Origin: an uncultured Halanaerobiales bacterium
GTDB lineage: Bacteria > Bacillota > Halanaerobiia > Halanaerobiales > M55B127
Assembly (NCBI GenBank): GCA_964430875.1
Contig: CAYSHP010000005.1
Location: forward strand, 8,740-72,739
Direction of reading: 5' to 3'
DNA: 64,000 bases
The position numbers and the translations under genes are program-made. Below are positions 9,388 to 63,562 of this stretch, piece after piece. The notes under the pieces are model-generated. The model was not told the origin of the DNA, made no database searches, and saw nothing but the letters and a program-made list of their open reading frames with translations. The stretch's first letter is position 1. Each line of letters begins with the position of its first letter.

Positions 9388-9422
9388 AATATACTCCCTA
9401 CTTTCTACTTTTTTGGTGTTAT

Positions 9423-27393: not shown

Positions 27394-27410
27394 TATTATC
27401 ACTTCTTTAT

Positions 27411-45218: not shown

Positions 45219-46047
45219 TTTTGATTTTGACTATTACCAGGCAGCTAATGCTGAAGAAGCCGTTGAAAAATATTTAGAATTAAAAAATAAAAATAAAAAT
45301 GTATCTTATTATAATGGTGGTACAGAAATAGTTACTTATGCCAGAAAAGATAAAATGAACTTCGATGCATTAATAGATATAAAAAATATACCTGCCTGCT
45401 CTGTTTTAAAAGAAGATGACAATAAAGTAATTATGGGGGCTTCTGTTTCTCTAAATGAGATTGCAGAAAAAAATTATTTCCCACTTTTAAGTAAATCATC
45501 AGAAGTAATCGCAGACCATACCACCCGAAATCATATTACTTTGGGCGGTAATCTCACTGGTAGACTTCCCTATAAAGAAGCTCTATTACCTCTTTTAGTA
45601 GCTGAAGCAAAAGTTACTACTATAAATAAGGATGGCTATCAAACTAGGCCGATTACCGAAGTATTTGATAAAAGAATGGCTTTAGACCAGGAAGAAATTT
45701 TACTGCAAATAATTGTAGATAAAGATAAAACAAAACTGCCTTATTATCAAACTAGAAAAGTTAAGCAAAGTGAAATAGATTATCCTATTTTACACATTGC
45801 TGCCTTAAAAGAAAATGAACAAATAAAATTTGCCTTATCTTCATTATGTCCGTTCCCTTTTAGAGATGAAAATCTTGAAGAAATTATTAATGATAATTCA
45901 TTAGAAAAAACCGAAAAAATTAATGAGATTGTTAATAATTTGCCGGTTCCAATCAACTCAAACCTCAGAGGGGGCAAAGAATATAAAGAAATGCTATTTC
46001 GTAATTCTTTAGATGCCTGTTTAGACAGCCTGGGAGGTGGAAATTAA
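45211..46047 (+). CDS. Xanthine dehydrogenase-family FAD-binding subunit
   Basis: GGTE, LIDIK, GASVSL and RNHITLGGN. Confidence 0.85.
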   Translation: MISFDFDYYQAANAEEAVEKYLELKNKNKNVSYYNGGTEIVTYARKDKMNFDALIDIKNIPACSVLKEDDNKVIMGASVSLNEIAEKNYFPLLSKSSEVIADHTTRNHITLGGNLTGRLPYKEALLPLLVAEAKVTTINKDGYQTRPITEVFDKRMALDQEEILLQIIVDKDKTKLPYYQTRKVKQSEIDYPILHIAALKENEQIKFALSSLCPFPFRDENLEEIINDNSLEKTEKINEIVNNLPVPINSNLRGGKEYKEMLFRNSLDACLDSLGGGN

Positions 46048-46514
46048 TGAAAGCTTATAAAGGACATCAAGAAATTACCTTAAATATAAATAATGAAATT
46101 TATAATATTGTAGTAACTCCTCATGAAACATTATTAAATGTTATTAGAGAAAAACTAGAATTAACAGGTCCCAAACCGGGTTGTGAAAATGGTGACTGTG
46201 GAGCCTGCACTGTATTGATAGATGATAAACCTTATAAATCCTGTATGGCGCTCGCAGTTGAAATGGAAGGAAGAGAAATAACTACTGTGGAAGGACTGGA
46301 AAACACCGCTATTCAAGAGGCCTTTATTGATAAAGAAGGTTATCAATGCGGTTATTGTACATCAGGCTTTTTAGTTAATGCCTTTGCTCTTTTAGAGAAA
46401 TACGAAAAACCGGAAGAAAGTACAATTAAAGAATGGTTAAGTAGTAATCTATGTAGATGTACAGGTTATGAAGGAATTGAAAAAGCGGTTGAAAAAGTCA
46501 TTGATAATAGATAA
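46047..46514 (+). CDS. Xanthine dehydrogenase-family 2x[2Fe-2S] subunit
   Basis: GCENGDCGACTV...C, QCGYC and CRC. Confidence 0.9.
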   Translation: MKAYKGHQEITLNINNEIYNIVVTPHETLLNVIREKLELTGPKPGCENGDCGACTVLIDDKPYKSCMALAVEMEGREITTVEGLENTAIQEAFIDKEGYQCGYCTSGFLVNAFALLEKYEKPEESTIKEWLSSNLCRCTGYEGIEKAVEKVIDNR

Positions 46515-46540
46515 GTCTTAAAAAATAATATTTGATTTAT

Positions 46541-46566
46541 AAAGCCCCAAATTAATTTGGGGCTTT
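46541..46566 (+). terminator. Intrinsic terminator (perfect palindrome)
   Basis: AAAGCCCCAAATTAATTTGGGGCTTT. Confidence 0.85.
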
Positions 46567-46652
46567 CTTTATTGAATTATATATAAATATATGATATGTT
46601 TTTAATGTCAAATTAAATATAAAGTCAAAATCATCGAAAGGAGGTATTCATA

Positions 46653-47810
46653 TTGTCATTTAAAGTTTTTAATTTTATTTATTATATGACTATGGCTGCG
46701 AAATCATTTTTTAACATACATTTTAGTAATCTTGGCTATACTTCTACTCAAATTGGAACAATTAATTCCATTGCTAGAGGAGTAGCACTTTTTATTTTAC
46801 CAATCTGGGGTATGGCTTCAGATAATTTCAAAGCTAATAAAAGAGTTCTTCAGTTTGCAATATTTGGCACAATGGCATTTAGTTTAATATTTTTAACTAC
46901 TTCAAATTTTATAATAATAATTATGTTAATGGTATTTTTATCGTCTTTTATGAATCCAATCAGACCATTATATGATAGTTTATTGTTTAGTAATTTAGGT
47001 GAAGAAGGTCAAAATAAATATGGTCGTTATAGATTATGGGGTTCTATTGGATATACTATTATTGTGCCTATCTTAGGTTACTTCTTAGAAGGCACAAATG
47101 TTTCAAATACATTTTATGTAATGGCAGGACTTTTATTTTTAACATTGCTAATTAGTTTTAAATTACCAAAAAATAAAATACAAGAACAAACCAATACAGA
47201 AGATAATGAGAACGAAGGTAGATTTGCTCATATAGGTATACTATTTCAAAATAAATTATTTGTTGCCTTTTTAATTTATGTATTTTTTATGCAAATAACC
47301 ATGAATGGTAATTTAACTTATTTCCCACTTTATGTTTTAGAATATGGTGGAAAAGAGGGACTGTTTGGACTAACTAAGATGGTAGGTTCAATTAGTGAGA
47401 TATTAATTTTAATATTTTCTGATAAAATACTTGATAGATTTAATATCAAACATATTTTTGGTGTTTCATCCTCAGCTTTTGTAATCAGATGGATCTTATT
47501 GGGCCTTTTCCCAATGAAAAGTATCTTTTTAGGATCTCAAATCTTACACAGTCTATCTTTTGGATTATTTTATGTAACATGTGTTAACTTTATTAATAAA
47601 GTTACATGTGATGAAGCAAAATCCACTGCACAAAATGTATTCACTTCTGTTTATATCGGATTAGGAAGTATTGTTGGTAATATGGTAGGTGGAGTTATCT
47701 TTGATAAATTAGGTGGAGATATTATGTATCTAACCTGGGCAGCAGTTGCATTCACAGCCGGTTTAGGATACTATATTTTCTTAAATCAAACAGAAAAAAG
47801 AGTAGCCTAA
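46653..47810 (+). CDS. MFS transporter (MFS_1-like, nucleoside/sugar/HcaT-type)
   Basis: PIWGMASD, YGRYRLWGSIG and QILHSLSFG; about 12 TM helices. Confidence 0.85.
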   Translation: MSFKVFNFIYYMTMAAKSFFNIHFSNLGYTSTQIGTINSIARGVALFILPIWGMASDNFKANKRVLQFAIFGTMAFSLIFLTTSNFIIIIMLMVFLSSFMNPIRPLYDSLLFSNLGEEGQNKYGRYRLWGSIGYTIIVPILGYFLEGTNVSNTFYVMAGLLFLTLLISFKLPKNKIQEQTNTEDNENEGRFAHIGILFQNKLFVAFLIYVFFMQITMNGNLTYFPLYVLEYGGKEGLFGLTKMVGSISEILILIFSDKILDRFNIKHIFGVSSSAFVIRWILLGLFPMKSIFLGSQILHSLSFGLFYVTCVNFINKVTCDEAKSTAQNVFTSVYIGLGSIVGNMVGGVIFDKLGGDIMYLTWAAVAFTAGLGYYIFLNQTEKRVA

Positions 47811-49808: not shown

Positions 49809-51455
49809 CTACTCTGTTGGAATTACAAGTTTTTGACCTACATAAATCATATTACGACTTTCCATATTATTTGTTTCTACAATTGCATCAACTTTTACAT
49901 TGAACATTCTAGAGATTTTTGCAAGATAATCTCCTTCTTCTACAGTATAAACATAGTTGCCATTTTGTTGGTCAACTTCGATAATTCTGCCTTCTTCTTT
50001 AGGAGCAACTGTACCTCTTTGGCTGATATAGTTCATTACTAATTCTTCTAATCCACCAGCTTCAATGACAGTTTCAGTACCTTTAAATACTTCATAACCG
50101 TCTCCACCAGCTGCCATAAAGTCATTTGTTGCTACTTCATAAACTGCATCATGGTCAACAGGTTCTCCATTAACTTTAAGACTGATTACTCTTTCGCCCA
50201 CAGATCTTTCGCCATCAAATACAATTTGCATTCCGGCTACTTGTGGAAAGAGACCTTCCAGTGCAGGATATTGTGATAAACCATGTTCTACAGCATCAAG
50301 AAGTTGGGCACCAGTTAACTTTTTAACTACAGTTGTATTACCAAATGGTAAGACAGTAATTACTTCACCTTTTGTAACTTCGCCTTCGTCAATAGATGCT
50401 CTAATTCCACCACCATTAGTAATTGCAACATCAGCCTCTGTTTTAGCTAACATTGAATCTGCTACTAAGTTACCTAGATTAGTTTCTCCAGATCTAACAT
50501 TAGCTCTTTCTCCATCTAATTCTACAGAAGTTTTACCTACAACAGCAGAAGTAATTTCTTCGTTTTCAGCTTGTACTTCTTCAATTACACTTAAAACAGC
50601 TTCATCTTTTTGAACATCGGCTGCATCTTCTTTTGTAATTAAACTAGCTTGAGCTGTCACTTCTCCTTCAGAGATAGAGACATCAACAACACCAAGATTC
50701 TTATCATATTCACCCGCTTGTGCGATTAAGGTTCCATTAACCATTAAACCTTCTTCTAAAACAGTGTGACTGTGACCATCAATAATCACATCAATACCAG
50801 ATACATTTTCAGCTACACCTCTACTTGTGTATTCGCTTCCTTCTGATAAACCCAAGTGAGATAAAGCAATAATCATATCAGTTTGATCTGAAAGTTCTTC
50901 TACCATTTCAGCTGCTACAGTATAAGGATCTTCAAAGGTTAATCCTTCTACATTTTTGGGATGAGTTTTGTAAGTTGTTTCTGGAGTAGCTAACCCAAAA
51001 ATACCTACCTTAACACCAGCAATTTCTTTAATGGTATAAGGTTCTACTAATTGTGGGTCTAAATTAGCAGCTAACACTGGGAAATTAGCCATTTCTTCTA
51101 GCTCTTTAATTCTTTCTTGACCAAAGTTAAAGTCATGGTTACCTAAAACCATTGCATCATAACCCATTTCATTTAAAATTCGTACAGCAGCTTCACCTTC
51201 ATTAAGGTTTACTATAGTCTGACCATGAAAAGTATCACCTGCATCTAACAATAAGACATCGCCTTCACTACGGTGTTCTTTAACTAAAGTAGCCACCTTT
51301 GGAAATCCCATACCAGCATAGCTTCCTTCTTCAATTCTACCATGTGTATCATTGGTGTGTAGAATTTGGAAAGTTGCATCTTGTGCTAAAACGGTTCCCA
51401 CCATTGACAGCACCATCACCAATACCAGAGTTGTAACTAAAAACTTTCTTTTCAT
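49809..51455 (-). CDS. Secreted 5'-nucleotidase/UDP-sugar hydrolase with C-terminal LysM
   Basis: HTNDTHG, DAGD, GNHDF, GHSH and NGGGIR; LysM YTVEEGDYLAKIS...IYVGQKLVIP. Confidence 0.9.
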   Translation of the reverse strand: MKRKFLVTTLVLVMVLSMVGTVLAQDATFQILHTNDTHGRIEEGSYAGMGFPKVATLVKEHRSEGDVLLLDAGDTFHGQTIVNLNEGEAAVRILNEMGYDAMVLGNHDFNFGQERIKELEEMANFPVLAANLDPQLVEPYTIKEIAGVKVGIFGLATPETTYKTHPKNVEGLTFEDPYTVAAEMVEELSDQTDMIIALSHLGLSEGSEYTSRGVAENVSGIDVIIDGHSHTVLEEGLMVNGTLIAQAGEYDKNLGVVDVSISEGEVTAQASLITKEDAADVQKDEAVLSVIEEVQAENEEITSAVVGKTSVELDGERANVRSGETNLGNLVADSMLAKTEADVAITNGGGIRASIDEGEVTKGEVITVLPFGNTTVVKKLTGAQLLDAVEHGLSQYPALEGLFPQVAGMQIVFDGERSVGERVISLKVNGEPVDHDAVYEVATNDFMAAGGDGYEVFKGTETVIEAGGLEELVMNYISQRGTVAPKEEGRIIEVDQQNGNYVYTVEEGDYLAKISRMFNVKVDAIVETNNMESRNMIYVGQKLVIPTE

Positions 51456-51813: not shown

Positions 51814-52347
51814 TTAGTCTTGATCTTTAAAACCTTTCCTGATTACTTTATAATCATTATTTTTAGTAACCAATTTATAAATATTAAAATTGGTTTTCAT
51901 ATCAATTTCTGGATGACGGACCGCAAAATTTATGGACGCAGAGCCTTCTTGACCAGTTCTGATTCTATGAAACACTTTAACTGAAGTTGATAAAATTGCC
52001 CCTCCATCATAAATCAATTCTCCATTTCTTTTAATTGAATGAGGGGAAATTTCGAATTTTTCAATTTTTCCATGTTCCGGAGTATATAAATCTACATGTC
52101 TAGTACCGAATAAAACTAAAAGATTATCTTCCTGGTGGGGGTGCATATACCAAGGCCTTTTAACCTCACCTATGCTACCCGGAGATAAAGCATTTTCTGC
52201 GTGAATCACTCTATCAATACCATCAACATTAGACAGATAATCCATATTTACCAGATCAAAGACAACTCCTTCAGTCTTTCTAAATACTTTAAGTGGGATG
52301 ACTTTAAACATATTTTTTTCAGCTGTAATAACTTCTTTATACTCCAT
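51814..52347 (-). CDS. Cupin-like hypothetical protein
   Basis: WYMHPHQED and FHRI motifs; RBS AAGGAGG. Confidence 0.6.
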   Translation of the reverse strand: MEYKEVITAEKNMFKVIPLKVFRKTEGVVFDLVNMDYLSNVDGIDRVIHAENALSPGSIGEVKRPWYMHPHQEDNLLVLFGTRHVDLYTPEHGKIEKFEISPHSIKRNGELIYDGGAILSTSVKVFHRIRTGQEGSASINFAVRHPEIDMKTNFNIYKLVTKNNDYKVIRKGFKDQD

Positions 52348-52410: not shown

Positions 52411-52704
52411 TTATTCTTTTTCAAAAATAGTATTTATTATTTTTTTCACTTCATCATTTTTAACATAGTACTTAATTTCCACTCCATTTCTTTGACCTTC
52501 TATTATATTGAGATCTTTCAGTTTGGTTAAATGTTGTGAAAGAGTAGATTGAGGTATATCTAAACAAGACTGCATTTTAGTTACATTATATCCTTCGCTC
52601 TCCATTAAGCCTTTCACTACACATAAGCGAATTGGATGTGAAATTGCTTTTAAAAGTTTAGCTTTCTCTTTAATTTCTTCCATATCTTTTATTATATTTT
52701 CCAA
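52411..52704 (-). CDS. ArsR/SmtB family transcriptional regulator
   Basis: KAISHPIRL, QSTLSQHL and RNGVEIKY winged HTH. Confidence 0.9.
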   Translation of the reverse strand: MENIIKDMEEIKEKAKLLKAISHPIRLCVVKGLMESEGYNVTKMQSCLDIPQSTLSQHLTKLKDLNIIEGQRNGVEIKYYVKNDEVKKIINTIFEKE

Positions 52705-52727: not shown

Positions 52728-52833
52728 CTATATCTATATATTATGAAATTATGATATTTAAGTCAAGAAATTTGTGAAAAATGATAAATTACATTTGACA
52801 AATATATTTATATATCATAATATTTAGATATAG
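52728..52833. promoter_or_regulatory. Mirrored divergent promoters (TTGACT/TTGACA-17-TAATAT) sharing a 19-bp operator-like sequence
   Basis: CTATATCTATATATTATGA (52728-52746) is the reverse complement of TCATAATATTTAGATATAG (52815-52833) with one mismatch. Confidence 0.7.
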
Positions 52834-52889
52834 TGATAAATATTTGGACTTCCAAGTGAACTATATCACACTTCAAAGGGGGATTAGAA

Positions 52890-53381
52890 TTGAATTTTAA
52901 AAGGTTTTTTTCTACACTAATTATTTATTTTATCTTCTGGTTAGCCTATACAAGTAGTTTTGCCACAGAAGAATTGTTAATAGGTATAGTAATTGCAGCT
53001 TTATTGTCTCTTTTTACATATAAAAGTTTTTCACAGATAAAAAGTGATAATAATATCTTTAAGAGAATTACTTCTTTTATAACCTATATACCTATTTTTA
53101 TCATTGAAATGGTTAAAGCTAATATCGATGTGGCTCGCCGAGTAATAAATCCAAATTTACCTATTAATCCAGGTATAGTAAAAATTAATACAGATTTAAA
53201 ATCAGATTATGCTAAATTGTTTTTAGCAAATTCTATTACCTTAACTCCGGGAACATTGACCATGGATGTTAAGGATGAAAATCTATATATACACTGGATT
53301 GATGTTGTTAGTACTAATAAAGATGAGCAAAAAGAGCAAATTGCTGGTAAATTTGAAGATACGCTTGGGGGGATTTTTTAA
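52890..53381 (+). CDS. mbxA: Mbx/Mrp subunit A (MnhE-like)
   Basis: PGIVK and ANSITLTPGT. Confidence 0.85.
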   Translation: MNFKRFFSTLIIYFIFWLAYTSSFATEELLIGIVIAALLSLFTYKSFSQIKSDNNIFKRITSFITYIPIFIIEMVKANIDVARRVINPNLPINPGIVKINTDLKSDYAKLFLANSITLTPGTLTMDVKDENLYIHWIDVVSTNKDEQKEQIAGKFEDTLGGIF

Positions 53382-53632
53382 TGTTTAGCTTTGTGTTCAT
53401 TTTAATTTTCATTTCAATAGTATTTGGAGCTTACCGATTTATAAAAGGTCCTTCCTCTCCAGATAGGGTTGTTGCCTTAGATACCTTAACCACAGTAGTA
53501 TCAGTTGCCTTAGTTGTTGGAGCCTTGTTCTTTAAAAATTATATCCTATTAGATATTTCATTTGTATTTGCTGCTCTTTCCTTTACAAGTGTTATAGTAA
53601 TTTCTCGTTATTTAGAAGGTGATAAATCATGA
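53381..53632 (+). CDS. mbxB: Mbx/Mrp subunit B (MnhF-like)
   Basis: GPSSPDRVVALD; three TM helices. Confidence 0.85.
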   Translation: MFSFVFILIFISIVFGAYRFIKGPSSPDRVVALDTLTTVVSVALVVGALFFKNYILLDISFVFAALSFTSVIVISRYLEGDKS

Positions 53633-53979
53633 TCTTTATCTCATTGATAGGTTATATACTTATTATCGTCGGAAGTATATTTTTACTTTTAGGTGCTTTA
53701 GGAATTGTTAGAATGCCTGACTTATATAATAGGATTCAAGCTGGTACTAAAGCAACTACATTAGGAGCTTTATCAGCTATTATTGGTGTAGGATTGGTTG
53801 AACCAAGTTGGTTTTTTAAAACTTTAATTATTGCTGTATTTATAGTATTAACCAACCCAATTGGTAGTCACAGCATTGCTCGTTCCGCTTATAAAAGTGG
53901 GTTAAAACCGGTTTTGAGCTCAGACATTGATGAATATGAAGAAAAAGACATCGAGAATGAAAGAAGTGATAGCGCATGA
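53629..53979 (+). CDS. mbxC: Mbx/Mrp subunit C (MnhG-like)
   Basis: PDLYNRIQAGTKATTLG and PIGSH. Confidence 0.85.
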   Translation: MIFISLIGYILIIVGSIFLLLGALGIVRMPDLYNRIQAGTKATTLGALSAIIGVGLVEPSWFFKTLIIAVFIVLTNPIGSHSIARSAYKSGLKPVLSSDIDEYEEKDIENERSDSA

Positions 53980-54218
53980 TGATTATCAGTTATTTACTTA
54001 TTTTATTAATGATTATAGGAGCATTAGCAGCAGTAATGTTTGAAAATTTATTAAATTCTATAATTTCATTAGGTTTGGTAAGTTTAATTGCAGCTGCTTT
54101 AATGTACTTTTTAAAAGCACCTGATGTAGCTATGACCGAAGCTATTATTGGGGCTGGATTAACAACTTCTATTTTTATATTTACATTATTAAAAATTAAA
54201 AGAGGTGATAACCAGTGA
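53976..54218 (+). CDS. mbxD: Mbx subunit D (DUF4040/MnhB N-terminal-like)
   Basis: APDVAMTEAIIG. Confidence 0.8.
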   Translation: MMIISYLLILLMIIGALAAVMFENLLNSIISLGLVSLIAAALMYFLKAPDVAMTEAIIGAGLTTSIFIFTLLKIKRGDNQ

Positions 54219-54967
54219 GATTTAGAGATTATCTATCCCTCTTGATGGTTATAATATTAGGCTTTATTATTTTTCAGGCTTTTACAGTCGGTAATGAAAA
54301 TAGTTTAAGTATTCCCGAATTTGGAAAAGCTAATTTAGAAAACAGAGTTTCAGAAAACTATATTAATAAAAGTGTTAATACAGAAAATGAAAGTCTTACA
54401 TTTAATGAAACAGAAAATCCCGAAAGTGGCTCAGCTAACTTTGTTACCTCAATCATTGCTAATTACCGGGCTTTAGATACATTAGGAGAAGTAACCGTCT
54501 TATTTATTGCAGCGGCCGGTTTAGCTTTTGTGCTAGGAGGAAACCAAGAAAATTATGCCTTCAAAGATGATGCCTCATTTATTGTAAGAACTGGAGTTAA
54601 AATTATTTTTCCACTCATGTTCTTATTAGGTATCTATATAGTAGTTCACGGACATTTAACTCCTGGGGGAGGATTTCAAGGTGGAGCAGTTATTGCTACA
54701 GCTGTTTTATTAAAATTCTTAGCTTATAAGGATTACAAGTTAAACCATACTGGTTTATCTTTACTGGAAAGTTTTGCAGGTATTTCATTTTTATTAATCG
54801 GTTTAGTTGGACTTTTAACAAATGGTTCATTTTTGACTAACTTTTTAAATAATGGTACTTTAGGAACCCTCTTCTCTGCTGGAATAATTCCCGTTGTCTA
54901 TATATTAATCGGGATTAAAGTAGGGGCTGAACTATCTGGTATCATCAGTAACTTAATAAATGCATAA
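54215..54967 (+). CDS. Mbx subunit E (MnhB-like)
   Basis: NYRALDTLGE and HGHLTPGGGFQGG. Confidence 0.85.
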   Translation: MRFRDYLSLLMVIILGFIIFQAFTVGNENSLSIPEFGKANLENRVSENYINKSVNTENESLTFNETENPESGSANFVTSIIANYRALDTLGEVTVLFIAAAGLAFVLGGNQENYAFKDDASFIVRTGVKIIFPLMFLLGIYIVVHGHLTPGGGFQGGAVIATAVLLKFLAYKDYKLNHTGLSLLESFAGISFLLIGLVGLLTNGSFLTNFLNNGTLGTLFSAGIIPVVYILIGIKVGAELSGIISNLINA

Positions 54968-54996
54968 ATTTCAATAACTAAAAAGGATGTGATACT

Positions 54997-55359
54997 TTGG
55001 CTTTTTTAAACCAATGGGCTTACCTTGGAGGTTCGATTATCTTAATTTTGATTGGTCTTTTTGGGGTATTGACCAGACGAAATTTAATAAAGATCGTTGT
55101 TAGTATCGGTATCATGGATACTGGCGTAAACCTCTTATTAGTCAGCTTAGGTTATATAAATAACGGAATTGCTCCAATAATGACGCAAGCTAATGCAACT
55201 AACAGTTTAAATTTTGTAGACCCTTTACCACAGGCATTAGTACTTACTGCCATTGTTATCGGGGTTGCAGTATTAGCTTTAGCTCTATCAATTGTGATTA
55301 AAATCTATGAAAATAAAAATACCCTACAAATCGATGAAATAAGGGGGTTAAACCTGTGA
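54997..55359 (+). CDS. mbxG: Mbx subunit G (MnhC-like)
   Basis: DPLPQALVLTAIVIG. Confidence 0.9.
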   Translation: MAFLNQWAYLGGSIILILIGLFGVLTRRNLIKIVVSIGIMDTGVNLLLVSLGYINNGIAPIMTQANATNSLNFVDPLPQALVLTAIVIGVAVLALALSIVIKIYENKNTLQIDEIRGLNL

Positions 55360-56807
55360 ATGCAAGCTTATTAATAGCAGTCCCTTTACTGACTGCCTTT
55401 GTAATACCATTAATTGCTAAGTTACATAAGAAAATTCCTGCATTTTTGGTATTACTAAGTACATTATTTAATGTAATTATAACCTTCTCTTTATATAGTA
55501 CAGTAATGGAAAATCCAATCGTAATTCAAATTGGTAATTGGGCTGTACCTTTTGGAATTAACCTTTATGTAGATAAATTAGCTTTGTTTTCTCTAATGGT
55601 TATCTCAGTTATTACCTTATTAATATCAATATATAATATAAGAAATACAGATGAATTAAATGAAAGTAAATTTAATACTATGTTTTTATTAGCTTTTACA
55701 GGTATAAATGGGATTATTTTAACAGGAGATATTTTTAACCTCTTTGTCTTTATTGAAATTGCAGCAATTTCCACTTATGTATTATCAACAATGAAAAGAA
55801 AAGAAAGTTATCAAGCTGCTTTTAAATATATTGTAATGGGATCAATTGCTTCTGTATTTTTACTAATGGCAATCGGCTTTTTATACAGCAGTATCGGAAG
55901 TTTAAATATGGGCGTAATTGCACAAAATGCTGGTAGTTTAAATCCCTCATTATTAAAAGTAGTCACATTATTATTGTTAATCGGAATTGGTATGGAAGCA
56001 GAACTTTTCCCGATGAATTTATGGGTTCCAGAAGTTTATGCTAAATCCTATGTAGGGGTAACTGCTTTGCTAAGTGGTGTACTTTCTGTTTCAGGCATAT
56101 ATGCCATGATAAGAGTATACTTTACGCTCTTTGGTAGTACTGATATTTTCTTTTACATTACTATAATCGGAGCTGTAACTTTAATATTTGGTGAATTCAT
56201 AGCTTACCAACAGAAAAATATTAAAAAAATGTTAGCCTATTCAAGTATTGCCCAGATGGGTCTGGTAATGGCAGTAATTAGTTTAAATACACCCACCGCT
56301 ATACAAGCCGGTTTATTTCAACTATTAAATCATTCCATACTAAAAGTACTGCTCTTTATTTCAGCTGGTTTTATGACCTATGCAGTTGGCAGTAATAAGA
56401 TTAAAGACCTTGCTGGTTTAGGTAAAAAAACACCAGTAGCTGGTTTTGGTTTTACACTCGGTGCATTAGGAATCATGGGTGTGCCATTTTTAAATGGATT
56501 TGTAAGTAAGATGCTGATTGTGCAAACTTCCCTTGGTTTGGGCAAATATTTTATTACAGGGTTGATTTTATTAGCTACTTTAATTGAAATTGCTTATTAC
56601 CTTAAAGTTATTCAAAACTTATACTTTAATGAAAATACTTTAAAAGTCAAAAAACTAATACCCTGCTTCTTACCGATTGGAGTTTTATCAGCAGCCATAC
56701 TTTATTTAGGAATAAGTCCACAAGTTGTTATTAACCTACTTAATCAAGTAGGCAATCAAGTTATTGATAATTCTAATTATATTATTTCAATATTGGGAGG
56801 GATTTAA
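55356..56807 (+). CDS. mbxH: Mbx subunit H (MnhD/NuoM/N-like antiporter subunit)
   Basis: DIFNLFVFIE, WVPEVY, KKMLAYSS and NHSILK. Confidence 0.9.
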   Translation: MNASLLIAVPLLTAFVIPLIAKLHKKIPAFLVLLSTLFNVIITFSLYSTVMENPIVIQIGNWAVPFGINLYVDKLALFSLMVISVITLLISIYNIRNTDELNESKFNTMFLLAFTGINGIILTGDIFNLFVFIEIAAISTYVLSTMKRKESYQAAFKYIVMGSIASVFLLMAIGFLYSSIGSLNMGVIAQNAGSLNPSLLKVVTLLLLIGIGMEAELFPMNLWVPEVYAKSYVGVTALLSGVLSVSGIYAMIRVYFTLFGSTDIFFYITIIGAVTLIFGEFIAYQQKNIKKMLAYSSIAQMGLVMAVISLNTPTAIQAGLFQLLNHSILKVLLFISAGFMTYAVGSNKIKDLAGLGKKTPVAGFGFTLGALGIMGVPFLNGFVSKMLIVQTSLGLGKYFITGLILLATLIEIAYYLKVIQNLYFNENTLKVKKLIPCFLPIGVLSAAILYLGISPQVVINLLNQVGNQVIDNSNYIISILGGI

Positions 56808-58679
56808 ATGAGTTTAAGTCAAATAATTATAATCCCTATCGTTTTATCAGTTATTACTTATTTGATTTCAAAAAAGATAAAAAAAGCAGGTTCTATTATA
56901 AATATAATCCTTTCAGGCTATATACTCTATACTTTAATTGATTTTTATGGACAATGGGATATCCTTAATCAAAGCTTGAATATTAGAGTACTAGGAGGTA
57001 ATTTTGAGTTTATCCTCAACAATTCTCCTTTAGCCTGGCTTTTAGCAATTATGACCGCGGGCAGTATATTTTTAATCAGTATCTTTACTGTTAATTCTCA
57101 AAAGAATGATAAAAATTCTGCAAGCTTTCACTTCTTTTTTTCAATATTATTAGGTAGTATCTTAGGAGTGGTTTTTGCAGGTGATTTAATGACACTCTTT
57201 ATCTTTTGGGAAGTTATGACTTACTCTTCCTTTTTCTTGATTTCTTCTGGTAAAAAGGAAGGGGCTAAAAAAGCTTCTTATCGTTATTTACTCTTAAGTG
57301 CTTTAGGGGCTTACTTAATGTTAACCTCAATATTTATAATCTATACTCAGACTAATTCATTGGAATTTACACAGGTAGCAAGTTATTTAGAAGGTCTACC
57401 AACTTTAAATTCAATTATTTTGATAATAATGATAGGAATTCCTTTCTTAATTAAAGCAGGTGTATTCCCCTTCCATGTTTGGGTAAATGGGGCACATAGT
57501 AATGCACCCAAGGAGTTTTCCCCTTTTCTATCCGGTTTAATGTTGAAAGTAGGTACTTATGGATTAATGCTTTTATTATACTTTGTACCACTTTATAACA
57601 TACTAGGGGATAGTATTAAATTTAGAGGTTTACCTCTATTCAATTATATATTAGCCATCTTTGGTGGAATTACAATTATTGCAGGAACAATATTAGCGAT
57701 AAGACAAGAAGATGTAAAAAGACTAGTGGCCTTTTCTTCTATTTCACAAATGGGTTATATTGTAATGGCACTAGCCATTTCAACTCCACTTGGTTTTACC
57801 GGTGGTCTGCTCCATTTGATGAACCATATGATATTTAAAACCACTATATTTTTAACAATGGCAGCTGTTATTTATAGGACACATACAACTAAGATGCATG
57901 AAATGGGAGGACTTATTTTTAGAATGCCGGTCACTTTTGCCGCCTATTTAACAGCCATTATTGCCTTAGCTGGTATCCCCCCTACAAACGGCTTTATTTC
58001 AAAGTGGGTAATATATCAAGCTTTAATCCAAAAAGGATATATTTTCCTTTCAGTAGCCGCCTTTTTTGGTAGTATTGGTTCTTTTATGTATGTATTTAAA
58101 CCATTAAGTACTGTCTTTTTAGGACAGCTCAAACCAGAACATAAAGATATTAAAGAAGTACCTTTTTTAATGCAGGTTCCCATGTATATCATGATGGCCC
58201 TGATGCTTTTATTCGGAGTTTTACCTGGTATTCAAATGAGAATTATTAATCAAATCGGTCAGTATCTAAATATTGAAACTGTCCAATCAACTCTTTATAC
58301 AATCTCCGGTGCATATGGTGCCTGGAACTCTTTAATAATCTTTAATGTCTTTGTAGGAGGCTTTATATTAGCTTTCTTAATTTTTATCTTTGCAAAGAAA
58401 TCAAAATTGGTCGGCCTAATGGACACTTACACAGCTGGTGAGTATATGGACGATCCGGAAAGTTACCATTATGCATATAAATATTATCGGCCTTTTGATC
58501 GTGTATTTGATTCTTTTGCTGCTAATAGTTTAACTAAAGCTTATGATACCTTCGCTGGAAATATAGTTAAATTAGGACAGGTATTTAGTAAATCCTTTGT
58601 AACCGGGAACGGACAAACTTATGCCTTTTATATGATCTTACTGATGATAATACTGGCATTTGCGGGGTGGATAGTATGA
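56808..58679 (+). CDS. Mbx subunit H' (second antiporter-like subunit, NuoL/MrpA-like)
   Basis: LFIFWE, PFHVWV, RLVAFSS, NHMIFK and NGFISKW. Confidence 0.85.
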   Translation: MSLSQIIIIPIVLSVITYLISKKIKKAGSIINIILSGYILYTLIDFYGQWDILNQSLNIRVLGGNFEFILNNSPLAWLLAIMTAGSIFLISIFTVNSQKNDKNSASFHFFFSILLGSILGVVFAGDLMTLFIFWEVMTYSSFFLISSGKKEGAKKASYRYLLLSALGAYLMLTSIFIIYTQTNSLEFTQVASYLEGLPTLNSIILIIMIGIPFLIKAGVFPFHVWVNGAHSNAPKEFSPFLSGLMLKVGTYGLMLLLYFVPLYNILGDSIKFRGLPLFNYILAIFGGITIIAGTILAIRQEDVKRLVAFSSISQMGYIVMALAISTPLGFTGGLLHLMNHMIFKTTIFLTMAAVIYRTHTTKMHEMGGLIFRMPVTFAAYLTAIIALAGIPPTNGFISKWVIYQALIQKGYIFLSVAAFFGSIGSFMYVFKPLSTVFLGQLKPEHKDIKEVPFLMQVPMYIMMALMLLFGVLPGIQMRIINQIGQYLNIETVQSTLYTISGAYGAWNSLIIFNVFVGGFILAFLIFIFAKKSKLVGLMDTYTAGEYMDDPESYHYAYKYYRPFDRVFDSFAANSLTKAYDTFAGNIVKLGQVFSKSFVTGNGQTYAFYMILLMIILAFAGWIV

Positions 58680-59563
58680 TTTTAACAATAATTCAGTTTA
58701 TACTTATAGCATTTGGAGCAATGGCTTTGGGTCTTCTTTTCATTGGTTTTGCCAAAAAAACTGTAGCCCGCACTCAAAAAAGAGTCGGTCCACCATTTTA
58801 TCAACCCTATATTGATGTCTTGAAATTATTCGGTAAAGACGCTATTACACACGGCTTTATCTTTGATTTTGGGGCAATAATGGCCTTTGGGGGCATGATA
58901 GCTACCCTATTTTTTGTACCAATTGCCAGTATTCAACTTTATAGTATGAGCGGCACCCTTTTATTAGTTATCTATTTGATGGCAATTGCTTATTTAGGTA
59001 TGGCAATGGCCACAGTTGGTTCAGGAAATCCTCTGGCTTCTGTTGGTATTTCAAGGGCTTTAACTCAAATGTTAGGTTATGAAATGCCATTTATAGTAGT
59101 TTTATTAACCTTAATATATAGAAGTAGTAATTCATCAATTTGGGGAATTGTGCAGGCACAACAAGGTGGGTTTTTAAACTGGAATTTAATTAATGTACCA
59201 ATTGGTACTGTTGTAGCTTTTATTGCCCTCTTAGGTTTAATGGGTAAAAAACCATTTGATGCACCTATCGCCCCCTCTGAAATTGCTTCAGGGCCGGTGG
59301 TTGAACATGGTGGTAAATATTTAGCACTATTAATGTTACAGCACGCTGTAGCAATTGTTGTTGAGACTGCTCTTTTTGTAAACCTCTTTTTAGGAGGCTC
59401 TTCCAACATAATCATTTTCATCTTGAAAATGCTTATTGTTTGGCTATTGGCTACTTTAATTGGTTCTATATTCCCACGTTTTAAAGTCGAGCAAGGTGTC
59501 TTATTTTACTGGAAGTGGCCTTTAATTGCCGCCTTGTTGCAAGCAGTCATCATTATTTTTTAA
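58676..59563 (+). CDS. mbxM: Mbx subunit M (NuoH-like)
   Basis: GPPFYQPYID, ISRAL and KKPFDAPIAPSE; ATGA overlap with the upstream stop. Confidence 0.85.
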   Translation: MILTIIQFILIAFGAMALGLLFIGFAKKTVARTQKRVGPPFYQPYIDVLKLFGKDAITHGFIFDFGAIMAFGGMIATLFFVPIASIQLYSMSGTLLLVIYLMAIAYLGMAMATVGSGNPLASVGISRALTQMLGYEMPFIVVLLTLIYRSSNSSIWGIVQAQQGGFLNWNLINVPIGTVVAFIALLGLMGKKPFDAPIAPSEIASGPVVEHGGKYLALLMLQHAVAIVVETALFVNLFLGGSSNIIIFILKMLIVWLLATLIGSIFPRFKVEQGVLFYWKWPLIAALLQAVIIIF

Positions 59564-59579
59564 TCAGGAGTGATCATTA

Positions 59580-60113
59580 ATGAAAGATAAATTTAAAAGT
59601 AGTAAATGGCAGGAGGTCATTAACTGGGCGCAAAAAAGATCCCTTTTTATGCTTCACTACTGTACAGGCTGTGGGGCAATTGAACTTCCTCCTACTATGA
59701 CTTCTAGATATGATATGAGTAGATTTGGAATCGGTCCTGCTGCTACCCCTAGACAGGCAGATATCCTCTTAATAACAGGCTATTTAAGCACTAAGACTTT
59801 AAGAAGGGTTATCTATACTTATGAACAAATGCAGGATCCCAAATTTGTAATGGGTTTTGGTTCCTGTACGATAAATGGGGGTATGTACTGGGATTCATAT
59901 AATACAATCAAACAACTTGATAAGTATATACCAGTTGATTTATATATAGCTGGTTGTATGCCTCGTCCGGAAGCAATTCTGGAAGGTTTTATGGAACTTA
60001 AAAACAAAATTGAAACTGGTAATGCTGATGGTTATCTAAGATATAAGGAAGATTATGATTTTTACAAAGAAAACCAAGAGAAAGTCTTAGGGGAGGTTAA
60101 GAGAAGACAATGA
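59580..60113 (+). CDS. mbxJ: Mbx subunit J (NuoB-like [4Fe-4S])
   Basis: CTGCGAIE, PRQAD, GSC and AGCMPRPEA. Confidence 0.9.
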   Translation: MKDKFKSSKWQEVINWAQKRSLFMLHYCTGCGAIELPPTMTSRYDMSRFGIGPAATPRQADILLITGYLSTKTLRRVIYTYEQMQDPKFVMGFGSCTINGGMYWDSYNTIKQLDKYIPVDLYIAGCMPRPEAILEGFMELKNKIETGNADGYLRYKEDYDFYKENQEKVLGEVKRRQ

Positions 60114-60592
60114 GAAATGAATCAGAAGTAATTGAACTGATCAAAAATAAATTAAATCCTCTCGATGTTAAAAAGTTAAGAACACAAAATCTGGCTGTCA
60201 CACTAAAAAAGGATGAATTAATTTCTGGATTAAATTATCTTAAAGCCCACAGTTATATTCATCTTGCTACTATAAGTTGTGTAGACTGGATAGATGATAA
60301 TGAATTCGAACTAGTTTATCATCTCTTCTCTTATGAAGATAAAATAAATATTAGTGTTAAAACAAGAATTGATAGAAAAGAATCTAAATTTGTAACCATA
60401 AAAAATATTTGGGCAGTTGCTCAATATTATGAACGCGATATACATGATTTTTTCGGTGTTGAATTTGAAGGAAATGATGATATGGATGAACTTATTTTAG
60501 AAAATTGGAATGATATTCCACCGATGAGAAAAGATTTTAATACCAGAGAATATGTAGATGAAAAATATGAATGGAGGGAATACCATGGATAA
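60110..60592 (+). CDS. mbxK: Mbx subunit K (NuoC-like)
   Basis: YERDIHDFFGVEFEG and PPMRKDF. Confidence 0.9.
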   Translation: MRNESEVIELIKNKLNPLDVKKLRTQNLAVTLKKDELISGLNYLKAHSYIHLATISCVDWIDDNEFELVYHLFSYEDKINISVKTRIDRKESKFVTIKNIWAVAQYYERDIHDFFGVEFEGNDDMDELILENWNDIPPMRKDFNTREYVDEKYEWREYHG

Positions 60593-61694
60593 AAGTAAAA
60601 TGACGGAAATGTTTTTTGGTCCTAACCATCCTGGTGTTCCAGGTAATTATGGTATAAATTATTATTATGAAGGTGATACAGTTGTATCAGCGGAACCTAA
60701 TGCTGGACACTTACACCGCGGATTTGAAAAATTAATGGAAGAAAGAGAATGGATTAAAAATACTCCTTTAGTTTGTAGAATCTGTGTTATGGAACCAGAT
60801 ATCAATGAAATGGTCTATGCTATGGGTTATGAAGCAATCGGTGAAATCGAAGTACCAAAAAGAGCCCAATATATTAGGTCAATCATCTTAGAACTGGCTA
60901 GAATTCAAGCCCACATTTTTTCTATCGGAGGTAATTCTGCGGCAATTGGTCTTTATTCAGCTATGCAGATAGGAGTTTTAGCACGTGATTATATATTAGA
61001 TATATTTGAAGAAATTACAGGTGGTAGAGTATATCATATCTACATTAGGCCAGGTGGGGTTAGACATGATATTGAAGATGAAACCTTTGACAAGATATTA
61101 GATCTATTAGATGACTTAGAAAATAATAGGATGCCGGAATTTCAAAAATTAATCTTTGAAAATCCTACTGCTCAAAAACGCTGGAAAGGTACAGCTGTTT
61201 TAAAACAGGAAGATGTACTTCGTTTAGGAGTTACCGGTCCTGCTTTAAGAGCGACTGGTCTTGAACATGATGTTAGACGACTGATGCCTTATGGAGCTTA
61301 TGATGAAGTAGACTTTGTAATTCCAACCGGCCAGGATGCTGATGCCTGGACTAGATTACAATTAAAAAGAAATGAAATTTTTCAAAGTATAAATATTATT
61401 AGACAGTTAATAAATAATATGCCGGATGGTCCTGTAAGTGTCAAATTAGGGAATGCTTTAAAGTATAAAATACCAGAAGGTGAAGCTTATGTTAAAGTTG
61501 AATCTTCTCGGGGAGAATATGGCTATTATATGGTCTCTGATGGTGGGTTAAAACCTTATAGAGTGCATGTGAGGGGTACATCTACTCCACTCGGATTATA
61601 TGGTGTAGAAGCACTCTTACCGGGTACAAGAATTGAAGATGTACCGGTCTGGGCCCATAGTTTAGGTATCTGTCCACCGGAATTTGATAGATAA
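60585..61694 (+). CDS. mbxL: Mbx subunit L (NuoD-like catalytic subunit without a full NiFe ligand set)
   Basis: GHLHRGFEKL, RICVMEPD, RVYHIY and SLGICPPEFDR; ATG 60585 after GGAGGG. Confidence 0.9.
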   Translation: MDKSKMTEMFFGPNHPGVPGNYGINYYYEGDTVVSAEPNAGHLHRGFEKLMEEREWIKNTPLVCRICVMEPDINEMVYAMGYEAIGEIEVPKRAQYIRSIILELARIQAHIFSIGGNSAAIGLYSAMQIGVLARDYILDIFEEITGGRVYHIYIRPGGVRHDIEDETFDKILDLLDDLENNRMPEFQKLIFENPTAQKRWKGTAVLKQEDVLRLGVTGPALRATGLEHDVRRLMPYGAYDEVDFVIPTGQDADAWTRLQLKRNEIFQSINIIRQLINNMPDGPVSVKLGNALKYKIPEGEAYVKVESSRGEYGYYMVSDGGLKPYRVHVRGTSTPLGLYGVEALLPGTRIEDVPVWAHSLGICPPEFDR

Positions 61695-61719
61695 TATTTC
61701 TCAAAGTGAGGTGAATTTG

Positions 61720-63516
61720 ATGAGTAAAGATAAAAAAAGTATTTTTTCTCCCACCGTTACATTTAAAAATTTATTTAAAAAACCTGAAACAGTTAAATTC
61801 CCAAAAGAAAGCAAAGAAACTGCTAAAAGATATCGTGGTTTTCATATAAATGACCTAGATAAGTGTATTGGTTGTGGAACCTGTGCAGAAATCTGTGATA
61901 ATAAAGCCATTGATATGGTTCAATTAGCTGATGTTAAAACCGAACTAGGACAACGTGATGAAAGACCTAAAATTGATTATGGGCGCTGTTGCTGGTGTGG
62001 GCTATGTGTTGATGTTTGTACTACTGGTTCTTTAGAATTTACACAAGACTATACTTATATTGATCAAGACCCTGATACTTTTTCTTATATACCTGATAAC
62101 AAAAATATTAATAAAGTAGAATTTGAAGTTGGTTATAAAAGAGATGAAGTTTCTGAACTTCTTGATTTAGATAGAGTGGAGATGGAAGAATTAAATCCAG
62201 CGAAAAGAGTCGATTCTTTTGTAGAAATTGTGCAGGGTTTTTCTAAAGAAAAGGCTGAAAAAGAAGCCTCCCGTTGTGTGGAATGTGATATTTGTACAGA
62301 AGCCTGTCCGGCTAGTATGAATATACCAGAATATATCCGGGGTATTTTTGATGAAGACTTAGATGAATCCTTAAAACAAATCTATGAAGATAATCCACTA
62401 CCCGAAGTATGTGGTAGAATATGTACTCATAAATGTGAAACGATCTGCTCTATTGGTCACCGCGGTGAACCGATCTCTATACGTTGGCTAAAAAGATATG
62501 CAGTAGATAATGTCGACTCTGCTGAATATCAAAAAGTATTAGGTACAGAAAAAATAGACCAGGTTGATAAACAGGTCGCTATTATTGGGGCAGGACCTGC
62601 TGGTCTCTCTGCTGCTCATTACTTAAGATTAATGGGATATCAGATTACTGTTTATGAAGCAGAAGAAAAAGCAGGAGGGATGATGAGATATGGTATTCCA
62701 GAATACAGATTACCATATGATCAACTAGATAAGGATATTAATTATATAAAAGAACTTGGTGTAGACTTTGTCTTTAATACTAGAGTCGGTGAAGATATAA
62801 AAATGCAAGAAATTGAAGATAAATATGATGCTGTTTTTGCTGCTACCGGTTTACATAATGGTAGGAGTACCAGAATTCCAGGTACAGATCACAATAATGT
62901 TTATCAGGCTATTTACTTACTAAAGAAAATTACTAAAGGCGAAAAAGTACCGGTTACTGAAAGAATTGTAGTAATTGGTGGAGGTAATGTTGCAATGGAT
63001 ATTGCAAGATCATTAGCTAGAATACAAAAACAAGAATTTGGAGAAGTTGATGTTATAGTTACTTCTTTAGAAACCGAAGATGTCATGCCTGCTGATGAAG
63101 AAGAAATCGAAGAAGCCCGCGAAGAAGGAGTAAAATTTGAACCGGGCCGCGGTCCAAAAGAAATCGTTGTTAATGAAGATGGCAGTATAGCACAATTATG
63201 TACAAACTGCTGTGTATCAGTATTTGATGATGATATGAACTTTAGTCCATCATTTGATAATGATGATATTAAAAACTTTGACTGTGATATGGTAGTAGAA
63301 GCCATCGGTCAAGGTGGAGATAATAGTTATATTGATGATAACTATGATATTGAATATGAAGGACCAAGAATAAAAGTTGATGAAGAACAGCAAACTTCTC
63401 TTCCCTGGTTATTTGCAGGTGGAGATATTGTGCAGGGGCCTGATGTTATTACCGGTATTAAAACCGGCCATGATGCAGCCGTAGGTATTGATAAATACTT
63501 ACGCGGTGAAAAATAA
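61720..63516 (+). CDS. MbxN/NuoI 2x[4Fe-4S] domain fused to a GltD/NfnB-like FAD/NAD(P)H oxidoreductase
   Basis: RYRG, CIGCGTC and CCWCGLC; then CVECDIC...CP, CGRIC...CE, GAGPAG, YGIPEYRLP and GGGNVAMD. Start 61720 after GAGGTG. Confidence 0.85.
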   Translation: MSKDKKSIFSPTVTFKNLFKKPETVKFPKESKETAKRYRGFHINDLDKCIGCGTCAEICDNKAIDMVQLADVKTELGQRDERPKIDYGRCCWCGLCVDVCTTGSLEFTQDYTYIDQDPDTFSYIPDNKNINKVEFEVGYKRDEVSELLDLDRVEMEELNPAKRVDSFVEIVQGFSKEKAEKEASRCVECDICTEACPASMNIPEYIRGIFDEDLDESLKQIYEDNPLPEVCGRICTHKCETICSIGHRGEPISIRWLKRYAVDNVDSAEYQKVLGTEKIDQVDKQVAIIGAGPAGLSAAHYLRLMGYQITVYEAEEKAGGMMRYGIPEYRLPYDQLDKDINYIKELGVDFVFNTRVGEDIKMQEIEDKYDAVFAATGLHNGRSTRIPGTDHNNVYQAIYLLKKITKGEKVPVTERIVVIGGGNVAMDIARSLARIQKQEFGEVDVIVTSLETEDVMPADEEEIEEAREEGVKFEPGRGPKEIVVNEDGSIAQLCTNCCVSVFDDDMNFSPSFDNDDIKNFDCDMVVEAIGQGGDNSYIDDNYDIEYEGPRIKVDEEQQTSLPWLFAGGDIVQGPDVITGIKTGHDAAVGIDKYLRGEK

Positions 63517-63528
63517 ATATATAATTTA

Positions 63529-63562
63529 AGCGGAGAGTAGAAATGCTCTCCGCTCTTTATTT
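63529..63562 (+). terminator. Intrinsic terminator ending the mbx operon
   Basis: AGCGGAGAGT-AGAAAT-GCTCTCCGCT followed by T-rich sequence. Confidence 0.8.

Follow-up and report, generated by a model that had tools for sequence, protein, structure and literature searches.

A 13-gene MBS/Mbx-type operon with a flavoprotein-fused N subunit in a Halanaerobiales bacterium, a candidate NADH-linked sulfane-sulfur reductase

[quoted passage not shown] The paper reporting the MBS structure placed catalysis at the proximal 4Fe–4S cluster of MbsJ, which has only three ligands, C28, C93 and C123, and whose CxxC loop is three residues shorter than that of MbhJ; the three-Cys ligation leaves one Fe of the cluster free for polysulfide. 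Enzymes carrying C85A/C385A in MbsL or C25A in MbsJ kept wild-type dimethyl trisulfide (DMTS) reductase activity, and the MBS cycle includes a high-potential [4Fe–4S]3+ state. For bacterial relatives, fusion of the N subunit to a gltD-type domain was already pointed out in 2015 in Thermotoga and proteobacteria. A fused ‘putative Mrp-Mbx complex’ of gamma-proteobacterial sulfur-oxidizing symbionts is co-expressed with the reductive tricarboxylic acid cycle, its direction being listed as unknown, and in Thermotoga maritima mbxA was induced 4.36-fold by S0, whereas rnfC was not (2022). Here we describe an operon of this family in a 64,000-nt stretch of DNA from an uncultured Halanaerobiales bacterium (assembly GCA_964430875.1, contig CAYSHP010000005.1, positions 8,740–72,739), which we refer to as the window. 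We favor, at a probability of roughly 0.45, a reading in which the operon encodes the form that the MBS/Mbx respiratory complex takes in bacteria, an ion-translocating reductase of sulfane sulfur that is linked to NADH and perhaps also to ferredoxin.

Positions 52890..63516 of the forward strand hold a single intact operon of 13 co-directional open reading frames (ORFs), arranged as mbs/mbxA-B-C-D-E-G-H-H′-M-J-K-L-N, and neighboring ORFs mostly overlap, by 1–35 nt. From A to H′, the products match the Pfam families MnhE, MrpF, MnhG, MbhD (DUF4040), MbhE with MnhB, NuoK/MrpC and, twice, Proton_antipo_M; from M to N, they match NuoH, NuoB, NuoC, NuoD and a NuoI-type dicluster protein. Because the E-values span 1e-14 to 1e-70, these family assignments lie well beyond chance. 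None of the genes is shortened relative to MBS. When each product was compared with all PDB chains, the best match of all 13 was the corresponding 6U8Y chain, ahead of MBH, Mrp and complex I. The ORFs and Pfam matches thus bear out the 13-gene order given in the original prediction, which had been read from the DNA alone, and the chain-by-chain agreement with 6U8Y supports its claim of a complete MBS/Mbx-family member. The cluster is a further member of a known, biochemically uncharacterized bacterial complex type. When one genome per species was scanned, relatives of L turned up in at least 586 species-level genomes, so the rarity implied by the prediction was overstated. We analyzed the 80 best loci for gene order, fusion and neighbors, and the same A-to-N order recurs wherever the contig is long enough.

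The large subunit, MbxL (60558..61694, +; 378 aa, NuoD/NiFe-large-subunit-like; full-length match to 6u8y_L), carries the motifs VC73RIC76VME79PD and GIC372PPE375FDR, which correspond to RIC85VPE and NC385PPDIDR in MbsL. Glu replaces the second Cys of each NiFe motif (E79 and E375), leaving two of the four NiFe cysteines, just as had been predicted from RICVME and ICPPE. We examined conservation in 80 L homologs, one from each of the 80 loci, together with MbsL. C76, V77 and C372 are invariant in all 81; position 79 is Asp or Glu in every member and position 375 in 80 of them. The ligands that would bind quinone are also gone: Nqo4 Tyr87, the head-group ligand, corresponds to the invariant Val77, and Nqo4 His38 corresponds to Pro28 in the window protein. 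Because both the NiFe and the quinone ligands are missing, L can be taken neither for the large subunit of a hydrogenase nor for a NuoD that reduces quinone. An additional cysteine, Cys73, creates a CxxC (C73-R-I-C76) beside the vestigial NiFe site in 24 of the 81 sequences, among them those of Halanaerobiales, spirochaetes, Bacteroidales and DHVE2; the remaining L proteins have Pro, Ala or Leu at this position. C73 and C76 may form a redox-active pair near the proximal cluster.

Similarity scores and phylogeny agree with this assignment. L scores 328 bits against MbsL, 218 against NuoD and 135 against MbhL (E = 5.9e-97, 2e-63 and 4.4e-38, with HycE at 3e-30), and J follows the same ranking (MbsJ, 7.2e-74; NdhK, 4e-37; MbhJ, 8.8e-30). 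In a neighbor-joining tree of L, which has no support values and includes two NuoD sequences and no hydrogenase outgroup, the whole family, P. furiosus MbsL included, sits on a long branch apart from the two NuoD sequences. The window protein belongs to a clade of Halanaerobiales, and the sister of that clade unites Thermotogota, Mcinerneyibacterium and Peptococcaceae, all with fused N. Together, the tree and the bit scores speak against a grouping of L with NuoD or with true hydrogenases, the outcome that would have counted against the prediction. The idea that the operon encodes a variant quinone-reducing complex I or a true energy-converting [NiFe] hydrogenase draws on the Nuo-like Pfam names and on a match of L to NiFeSe_Hases of 20.2 bits, below the cut-off of 25.8. 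It is refuted at the sequence level by the two Cys-to-Glu replacements, by Val and Pro in place of Nqo4 Y87 and H38, by the CxxC of J and by the low NuoD and MbhL scores, and we give it next to no weight.

The two remaining cysteines of L had been called catalytic, and their pattern was held to define MBS. Neither statement fits MBS itself, in which the C85A/C385A mutant retains wild-type activity and the catalyst is instead the proximal 4Fe–4S cluster of MbsJ. The relevant comparison is therefore with J rather than with the L cysteines. MbxJ (59580..60113, +; 177 aa, NuoB-like, closest to 6u8y_J) aligns with MbsJ without gaps over 165 residues, and its Cys28, Cys31, Cys96 and Cys126 coincide with MbsJ C25, C28, C93 and C123. 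It has a CxxC (C28-x-x-C31), not the tandem CC of complex I. Window J is consistent with an MBS-type three-Cys catalytic cluster, and this is where catalysis would presumably occur. The invariance of the two L cysteines nevertheless argues for some role of theirs beyond DMTS turnover in vitro. The link to sulfur that had been proposed remains plausible on the strength of the MbsJ cluster motif in J and the induction of T. maritima mbxA on S0.

The last gene, taken in the original prediction for a plain NuoI, encodes an MbsN–flavoprotein fusion of 598 aa (mbxN, 61720..63516, +; Pfam Fer4_7, Fer4_20 and Pyr_redox_2; 6u8y_N, 1.7e-27; 4ylf_B, 7.6e-75). Its longest ORF opens at a TTG at 61684, within L, and would give 610 aa; the true start is likely the ATG at 61720, which has a GAGGTGA Shine–Dalgarno sequence 7 nt upstream and yields the length of the close homologs, also 598 aa. 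In the numbering of the 610-aa ORF, the MbsN-like part spans residues 15–124 and the NfnB/GltD-like part residues 165–609, corresponding to ~61726–62055 and ~62176–63510 in the DNA. The flavoprotein part matches T. maritima NfnB (4YLF_B), the large subunit of P. furiosus NfnI, and the GltD and dihydropyrimidine dehydrogenase (DPD) N-terminal modules. In 598-aa numbering, Cys49/52/55/59 and Cys90/93/96/100 reproduce the eight MbsN ligands of two 4Fe–4S clusters, and Cys186/189/192/196 and Cys231/235/239/243 form the two Fer4_20 4Fe–4S motifs of the flavoprotein part. These are followed by a GAGPAG FAD motif at residue 290 and a nicotinamide-nucleotide motif, GGGNVAMD, at residue 420 that leads into TSLE. 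A ferredoxin-only input of the Pyrococcus kind had been assumed for this complex, and the fused FAD/NAD(P)H module on N alters both the likely donor and the energetics.

The sequence around the nucleotide site bears on the choice of donor. T. maritima NfnB reads V-Y-I-V-Y-R-R-T-E where the window protein reads V-I-V-T-S-L-E-T-E, and the latter has a 5–6-residue insertion directly ahead of this strand. In Rossmann folds, NAD(H) is classically favored by an acidic residue that ends β2 and NADP(H) by an Arg pair. Because Leu-Glu stands where an Arg-Arg pair would bind the phosphate of NADPH, we predict NADH for the window enzyme; the motif suggests this donor. Comparing window positions 63061–63072 with other loci (for example, L015, L016, L049, L059, L077 and L080) separates two types. 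The Leu-Glu type occurs in all Halanaerobiales, Thermotoga, Fervidobacterium, spirochaetes and gamma-proteobacteria, including sulfur-oxidizers, and the NfnB-like Tyr-Arg-Arg type in Mesoaciditoga, Bacteroidales, WOR-3, Chlorobiota, Fermentibacteria and Hydrothermota; the two types track the L phylogeny. This split amounts to a concrete, checkable prediction on cofactor use.

Four clusters have a Rex-type repressor gene (Put_DNA-bind_N and CoA_binding domains) ~37 nt upstream of mbxA on the same strand (L038, L044, L059 and L077). They belong to four deep-branching lineages, and the repeated adjacency hints at control by the NADH/NAD+ ratio, which counts in favor of the NADH-linked reading. 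Near the window operon, matches to the Rex box TTGTGAA-N4-TTCACAA with up to three mismatches were no more frequent than chance, and none lay in the promoter.

Fusion of N, in a single reading frame, is the usual bacterial form. The N gene could be read in 73 loci and is fused in 61 of them, of which 53 are complete and 8 truncated. N is unfused in 11 loci, and one locus with a truncated N ORF was left unscored. The unfused forms come from Caloramator, Thermobrachium, C. tepidiprofundi, two more metagenome-assembled genomes (MAGs) of Clostridia, Atribacteria, DHVE2, Thermoplasmata and one Mesoaciditoga, and N of P. furiosus is unfused as well. In the Mesoaciditoga locus (L010:11124-14170), the unfused N gene is followed by NfnA-like (DHODB_Fe-S_bind) and NfnB-like genes, the only such pair among the loci; the module here appears to be either split or not yet fused. 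Six spirochaete clusters have a gene of the FMN-containing DHODH family just upstream on the same strand (L022:516-1511 and five more), which recalls the GltD-like and DHODH-like pairing of DPD.

In 14 loci, as well as in Fervidobacterium, the gene directly 3′ of the fused mbxN is rubrerythrin-like (for example, L041:13155-13664, L012:12982-13485 and L043:13066-13587), and several Spirochaete proteins of ~750 aa list rubrerythrin PF02915 among their Pfam domains (such as P0056, P0068 and P0074). Such a gene is absent from the locus in the window and in all of its Halanaerobiales relatives. These neighbors bring up an alternative in which the complex is a ferredoxin-driven sulfane-sulfur reductase of the Pyrococcus kind and the flavoprotein is an accessory branch, either balancing NAD(P)H or supplying rubrerythrin against peroxide or oxygen. 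The rubrerythrin genes and PF02915 domains fit it, the N-only forms of Caloramator, Atribacteria and archaea imply that the core works without the flavoprotein domain, and the energetics favor ferredoxin. That Halanaerobiales have no rubrerythrin at the locus counts against it, and so does the covalent fusion itself, whose retention in 61 of 73 loci speaks for a place of the flavoprotein in the main path. On balance, we regard an accessory role as rather unlikely.

Because the pocket resembles that of MBS in each respect that could be tested and S0 induces mbxA in T. maritima, we favor the NADH-linked sulfane-sulfur reductase. In this enzyme, a Mrp-type membrane arm (A–G, H and H′) and the anchor M would carry the J/K/L catalytic pocket and N with its flavoprotein extension. 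Electrons would pass from NADH to FAD, through the two 4Fe–4S clusters of the flavoprotein and the two of the N part, to the proximal 4Fe–4S cluster of J, forming a wire of five clusters; reduced ferredoxin could be an additional donor to this chain. At the J cluster, the S–S bond of sulfane sulfur would be cleaved, with the substrate being polysulfide formed from S0 or the persulfide or sulfane sulfur that rhodaneses free from thiosulfate, and sulfide would be produced afterwards, away from the enzyme. Export of Na+ or H+ through H′, H and the Mrp module would be powered by the redox step where J, L and M meet. The acceptor in this scheme is suggested by the MbsJ-type geometry and the T. maritima response, and we likewise infer the direction of the reaction and the ion specificity.

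Several observations weigh against this reading. By textbook potentials, transfer from NADH (about -320 mV) to S0 or polysulfide (about -260 to -270 mV) yields only ~10–12 kJ per two electrons, barely enough for one ion, and ferredoxin would yield about four times as much. By itself, NADH would thus drive the complex poorly, except if the complex operates near equilibrium or ferredoxin contributes. The assignment of NADH itself derives from a single motif, and two of the Rex-linked loci have the Y-R-R type of nucleotide site. The H subunit of the window lacks the TM8 Lys, as detailed below. The window contains no other sulfur genes, and its remainder contains no energy-metabolism genes. We found no purified or assayed bacterial member in the literature that we searched, where Halanaerobium and Mbx met only in an incidental co-mention, and Mesotoga Mbx is weakly expressed on thiosulfate.

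The weak energetics of NADH keep alive not only the accessory-flavoprotein reading but also an older one, in which the complex is an ion-translocating ferredoxin:NAD(P)+ oxidoreductase, analogous to Rnf, that takes ferredoxin electrons into the cluster chain and reduces NAD(P)+ at the fused flavin. Before 2018, Mbx was originally explained in this way, and the idea persists for bacterial clusters, being stated for the gltD-type clusters of Thermotoga and proteobacteria and assumed for Mesotoga. Its energetics are comfortable (~130 mV), and in Nfn the clusters of the domain homologous to that seen here do exchange electrons with ferredoxin. Such a path would, however, bypass the J/L/M pocket, the coupling site in every structurally known relative, and yet the pocket residues C76, V77 and C372 of L are invariant. 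P. furiosus MBS, once given the same function, is now regarded as a ferredoxin-dependent sulfane reductase. T. maritima already owns Rnf, and its S0 response involves mbxA and not rnfC; Rex-linked operons, moreover, are usually NADH-consuming. We judge an Rnf-like function unlikely, though a serious contender.

The energetics also leave room for a third arrangement, a membrane-bound, ion-coupled, electron-bifurcating NADH:polysulfide/ferredoxin oxidoreductase in which the fused NfnB-type flavin keeps its bifurcating chemistry. NADH would be oxidized at the FAD; one electron would reach sulfane sulfur by a downhill path over the N and J clusters, and the other would be driven uphill through the two low-potential 4Fe–4S clusters of the flavoprotein to ferredoxin. 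If true, this layout would resolve the poor energetics of NADH alone; we treat it as a long shot.

Finally, the pocket might act on a hydrophobic or disulfide-type acceptor other than inorganic sulfane sulfur, be it a polysulfide of organic nature, a persulfide or disulfide of low molecular weight or some other compound, and the reaction might run in reverse toward NAD(P)H in sulfur-storing autotrophs. The published MBS mechanism was proposed for inorganic or organic disulfides. The family spans very different physiologies, being present also in Thiodiazotropha, Thiomargarita and tubeworm symbionts, and the possible redox pair C73-x-x-C76 would fit other chemistry. The S0 response of T. maritima points to sulfur, however, and nothing positive speaks for any specific alternative, so a different acceptor seems improbable to us.

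The membrane arm resembles that of MBS in most of the residues that we compared. MbxA (52890..53381, +; 163 aa, MnhE/MrpE-like; Pfam MNHE, 1.6e-43; 6u8y_A, 8e-39) and MbxB (53381..53632, +; 83 aa, MrpF-like; Pfam MrpF_PhaF; 6u8y_B, 7e-13) open the series. MbxC (53629..53979, +; 116 aa, MnhG-like; Pfam PhaG_MnhG; 6u8y_C, 6.8e-28) keeps the helix break of MbsC P83 within an LTNP motif aligned to 6u8y_C. MbxD (53976..54218, +; 80 aa, MbhD/DUF4040; Pfam MbhD; 6u8y_D, 3.9e-17) keeps MbsD E58 in an MTEA aligned to 6u8y_D. After MbxE (54215..54967, +; 250 aa, MbhE+MnhB; Pfam MnhB and MbhE; 6u8y_E, 1.4e-51) comes MbxG (54997..55359, +; 120 aa, NuoK/MrpC-like; Pfam Oxidored_q2; 6u8y_G, 3.9e-31), in which Asp replaces MbsG E37. 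MbxH′ (56808..58679, +; 623 aa, MrpA-like antiporter subunit; 6u8y_X, 1.8e-90 over residues 5–619) aligns as far as residue 619 and thus covers the C-terminal TM15-HL-TM16, and it keeps all five charged residues of MbsH′, the equivalents of E128, K217, K248, H336 and K399. MbxH (55356..56807, +; 483 aa, MrpD-like antiporter subunit; 6u8y_H, 1.9e-92) keeps MbsH E138 (TM5), E219 (TM7) and K393 (TM12), with Val in place of the TM8 Lys K250 and Gln in place of H330. Residue mapping in 54 H homologs found K250 in only 22, and so a scheme of two proton pumps may fail across the bacterial family. The arm genes are followed by that for MbxM (58667..59563, +; 298 aa, NuoH-like membrane anchor; Pfam NADHdh, 7.8e-60; 6u8y_M, 1.1e-61), and MbxK (60110..60592, +; 160 aa, NuoC-like; Pfam Complex1_30kDa; 6u8y_K, 3.4e-23) lies between J and L.

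Signals at both ends bracket the 13 genes, which are best read as one transcription unit. A candidate sigma-70-like promoter, TTGACA-17-TAATAT (52795..52823, +), lies 67 nt ahead of mbxA; it is identified by its match to consensus, the best in the region at 10 of 12 positions with a perfect −35, and both the −35 and the −10 are conserved in Halanaerobiales relatives. Past the operon, a hairpin resembling an intrinsic terminator (63529..63554, +; an 11-bp stem with 6 GC, then a T-rich tail) starts 13 nt beyond the mbxN stop and is the strongest site of its kind in the region. A search for inverted repeats found an imperfect, operator-like palindrome, TATCATAATATTTAGATATAGTGATA (52813..52838, strand unassigned), that spans the −10. 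A similar element covers the −10 upstream of mbx in four other Halanaerobiales (L001, L004, L005 and L006), and we regard it as a putative operator. Among public RNA runs searched for the L gene, none contains it. Public DNA runs containing the stretch are labeled as soil, seawater, salt-lake, hypersaline-lake and food metagenomes, which is uninformative on function.

Divergent from the operon is a gene for an ArsR/SmtB-family winged-helix protein of 97 aa (52411..52704, −; Pfam HTH_20/HTH_5), a candidate regulator. ArsR-type homologs lie directly upstream of the mbx cluster in eight Firmicute loci, with both fused and N-only (Caloramator type) forms; no ArsR gene was found in the mbx flank of Halanaerobium saccharolyticum (L005), where the promoter palindrome is present. 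We considered a persulfide sensor of the SqrR/BigR type and dropped the idea, as Cys positions vary among the homologs; with these cysteines unconserved, no effector can be proposed.

We checked the window genes for likely partners and found no gene for NfnA/SudB, NSR, rhodanese, Rnf, hydrogenase or rubrerythrin. The neighboring genes encode a trio of xanthine-dehydrogenase type, transporters, CorA, MscS and a 5′-nucleotidase. The trio (Mo, FAD and 2Fe–2S subunits), an adjoining nucleoside-type MFS transporter and, nearby, a secreted LysM 5′-nucleotidase (42885-47810 and 49809-51455) form what looks like an island for purine scavenging or catabolism. Between the 5′-nucleotidase and ArsR genes lies a gene for a 177-aa protein (51814-52347) with no Pfam family, conserved only in the closest MAG (L001, 82%). 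Farther away are a tocopherol-cyclase-family protein (26401-27402; Pfam, 4.5e-31), found here in an apparently strictly anaerobic fermenter, and a very conserved 647-aa protein (7492-9435) that matches DUF4914 end to end with 985 bits.

The closest L among the matches listed, at 97% identity, comes from a MAG of an uncultured Halanaerobiales bacterium whose mbx flanks are the same, and that of H. saccharolyticum is 75% identical. The suggestion of lateral acquisition in the original prediction is weak: the mbx flanks are conserved among several Halanaerobiales, and GC3 of the cluster (0.225 ± 0.042) overlaps that of the other window genes (0.189 ± 0.027), as does GC. On these grounds, nothing speaks for a recent horizontal transfer. 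Firmicutes do not form a single clade in the L tree; old transfers between phyla are compatible with it and likely.

Among the versions of MBS/Mbx, the bacterial one with fused N clearly predominates, and the family ranges from Thermotogota to sulfur-storing symbionts. If the favored reading is true, some Halanaerobiales conserve energy from sulfur reduction through an NADH-fed, complex-I-like pump, beyond substrate-level phosphorylation. In the current model of Halanaerobium sulfidogenesis, the sulfane sulfur that rhodaneses release has no assigned reductase; our reading, if true, would assign one to the sulfane sulfur of thiosulfate in models of souring in brines and fractured shales. H. saccharolyticum is a cultured mesophilic carrier and easier to study than hyperthermophiles.

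Set beside P. furiosus MBS, the window complex has the same 13 subunits in the same order, the Cys pattern and spacing of MbsJ, an L with the same two vestigial cysteines and acidic residues and an H′ with the pump residues and TM15-HL-TM16 retained. It differs in N, which in P. furiosus has 208 aa and is fed by ferredoxin, whereas the window N has 598 aa and an FAD/NAD(P)H/2×4Fe–4S domain. The window H is without the TM8 Lys and H330, and the window L has Cys73 in addition. Instead of SurR, the neighboring regulator is a small ArsR-type protein, and the operon belongs to a mesophilic or halophilic bacterium. With the T. maritima MBX and proteobacterial gltD-type clusters, the window operon shares the fused N and the Leu-Glu nucleotide site, and in the L tree the Thermotogota clade is sister to the Halanaerobiales clade that holds it. 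Its L is ~53–57% identical to theirs. Unlike those clusters, it is not followed by a rubrerythrin gene, has an ArsR-type regulator gene upstream and comes from a halophilic host.

The flavoprotein domain compares in turn with NfnB/SudA/GltD (4YLF_B; P. furiosus NfnI large subunit, 5JCA_L; glutamate synthase small subunit), with which its C-terminal 445 aa align end to end and have in common both 4Fe–4S motifs as well as those for FAD and, of Rossmann type, for NAD(P)H. In contrast to NfnB and SudA, it has no NfnA/SudB partner in the operon or window, S-L-E with an insertion replaces the Y-R-R 2′-phosphate site, and the domain is covalently joined to a complex-I-type subunit. Complex I (Nuo/Nqo) offers the same overall plan, in which a flavin NADH dehydrogenase feeds a 4Fe–4S chain leading to a NuoB-type cluster over a NuoD/NuoH pocket, with antiporter-like subunits in the membrane. 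Its input module is unrelated, being NuoF with FMN rather than a GltD-type FAD protein, and the window has no NuoE, NuoF or NuoG genes. The window complex also lacks the quinone ligands, has a CxxC in J and has a membrane arm made of a full Mrp set with a Na+ path. MBH (6CFW) and the group 4 [NiFe] hydrogenases share common ancestry of L, J, K, N and M with the window complex, as well as Mrp-type subunits, but score much lower; the window L retains two of the four NiFe cysteines, and the membrane arm has two antiporter-like subunits where MBH has one.

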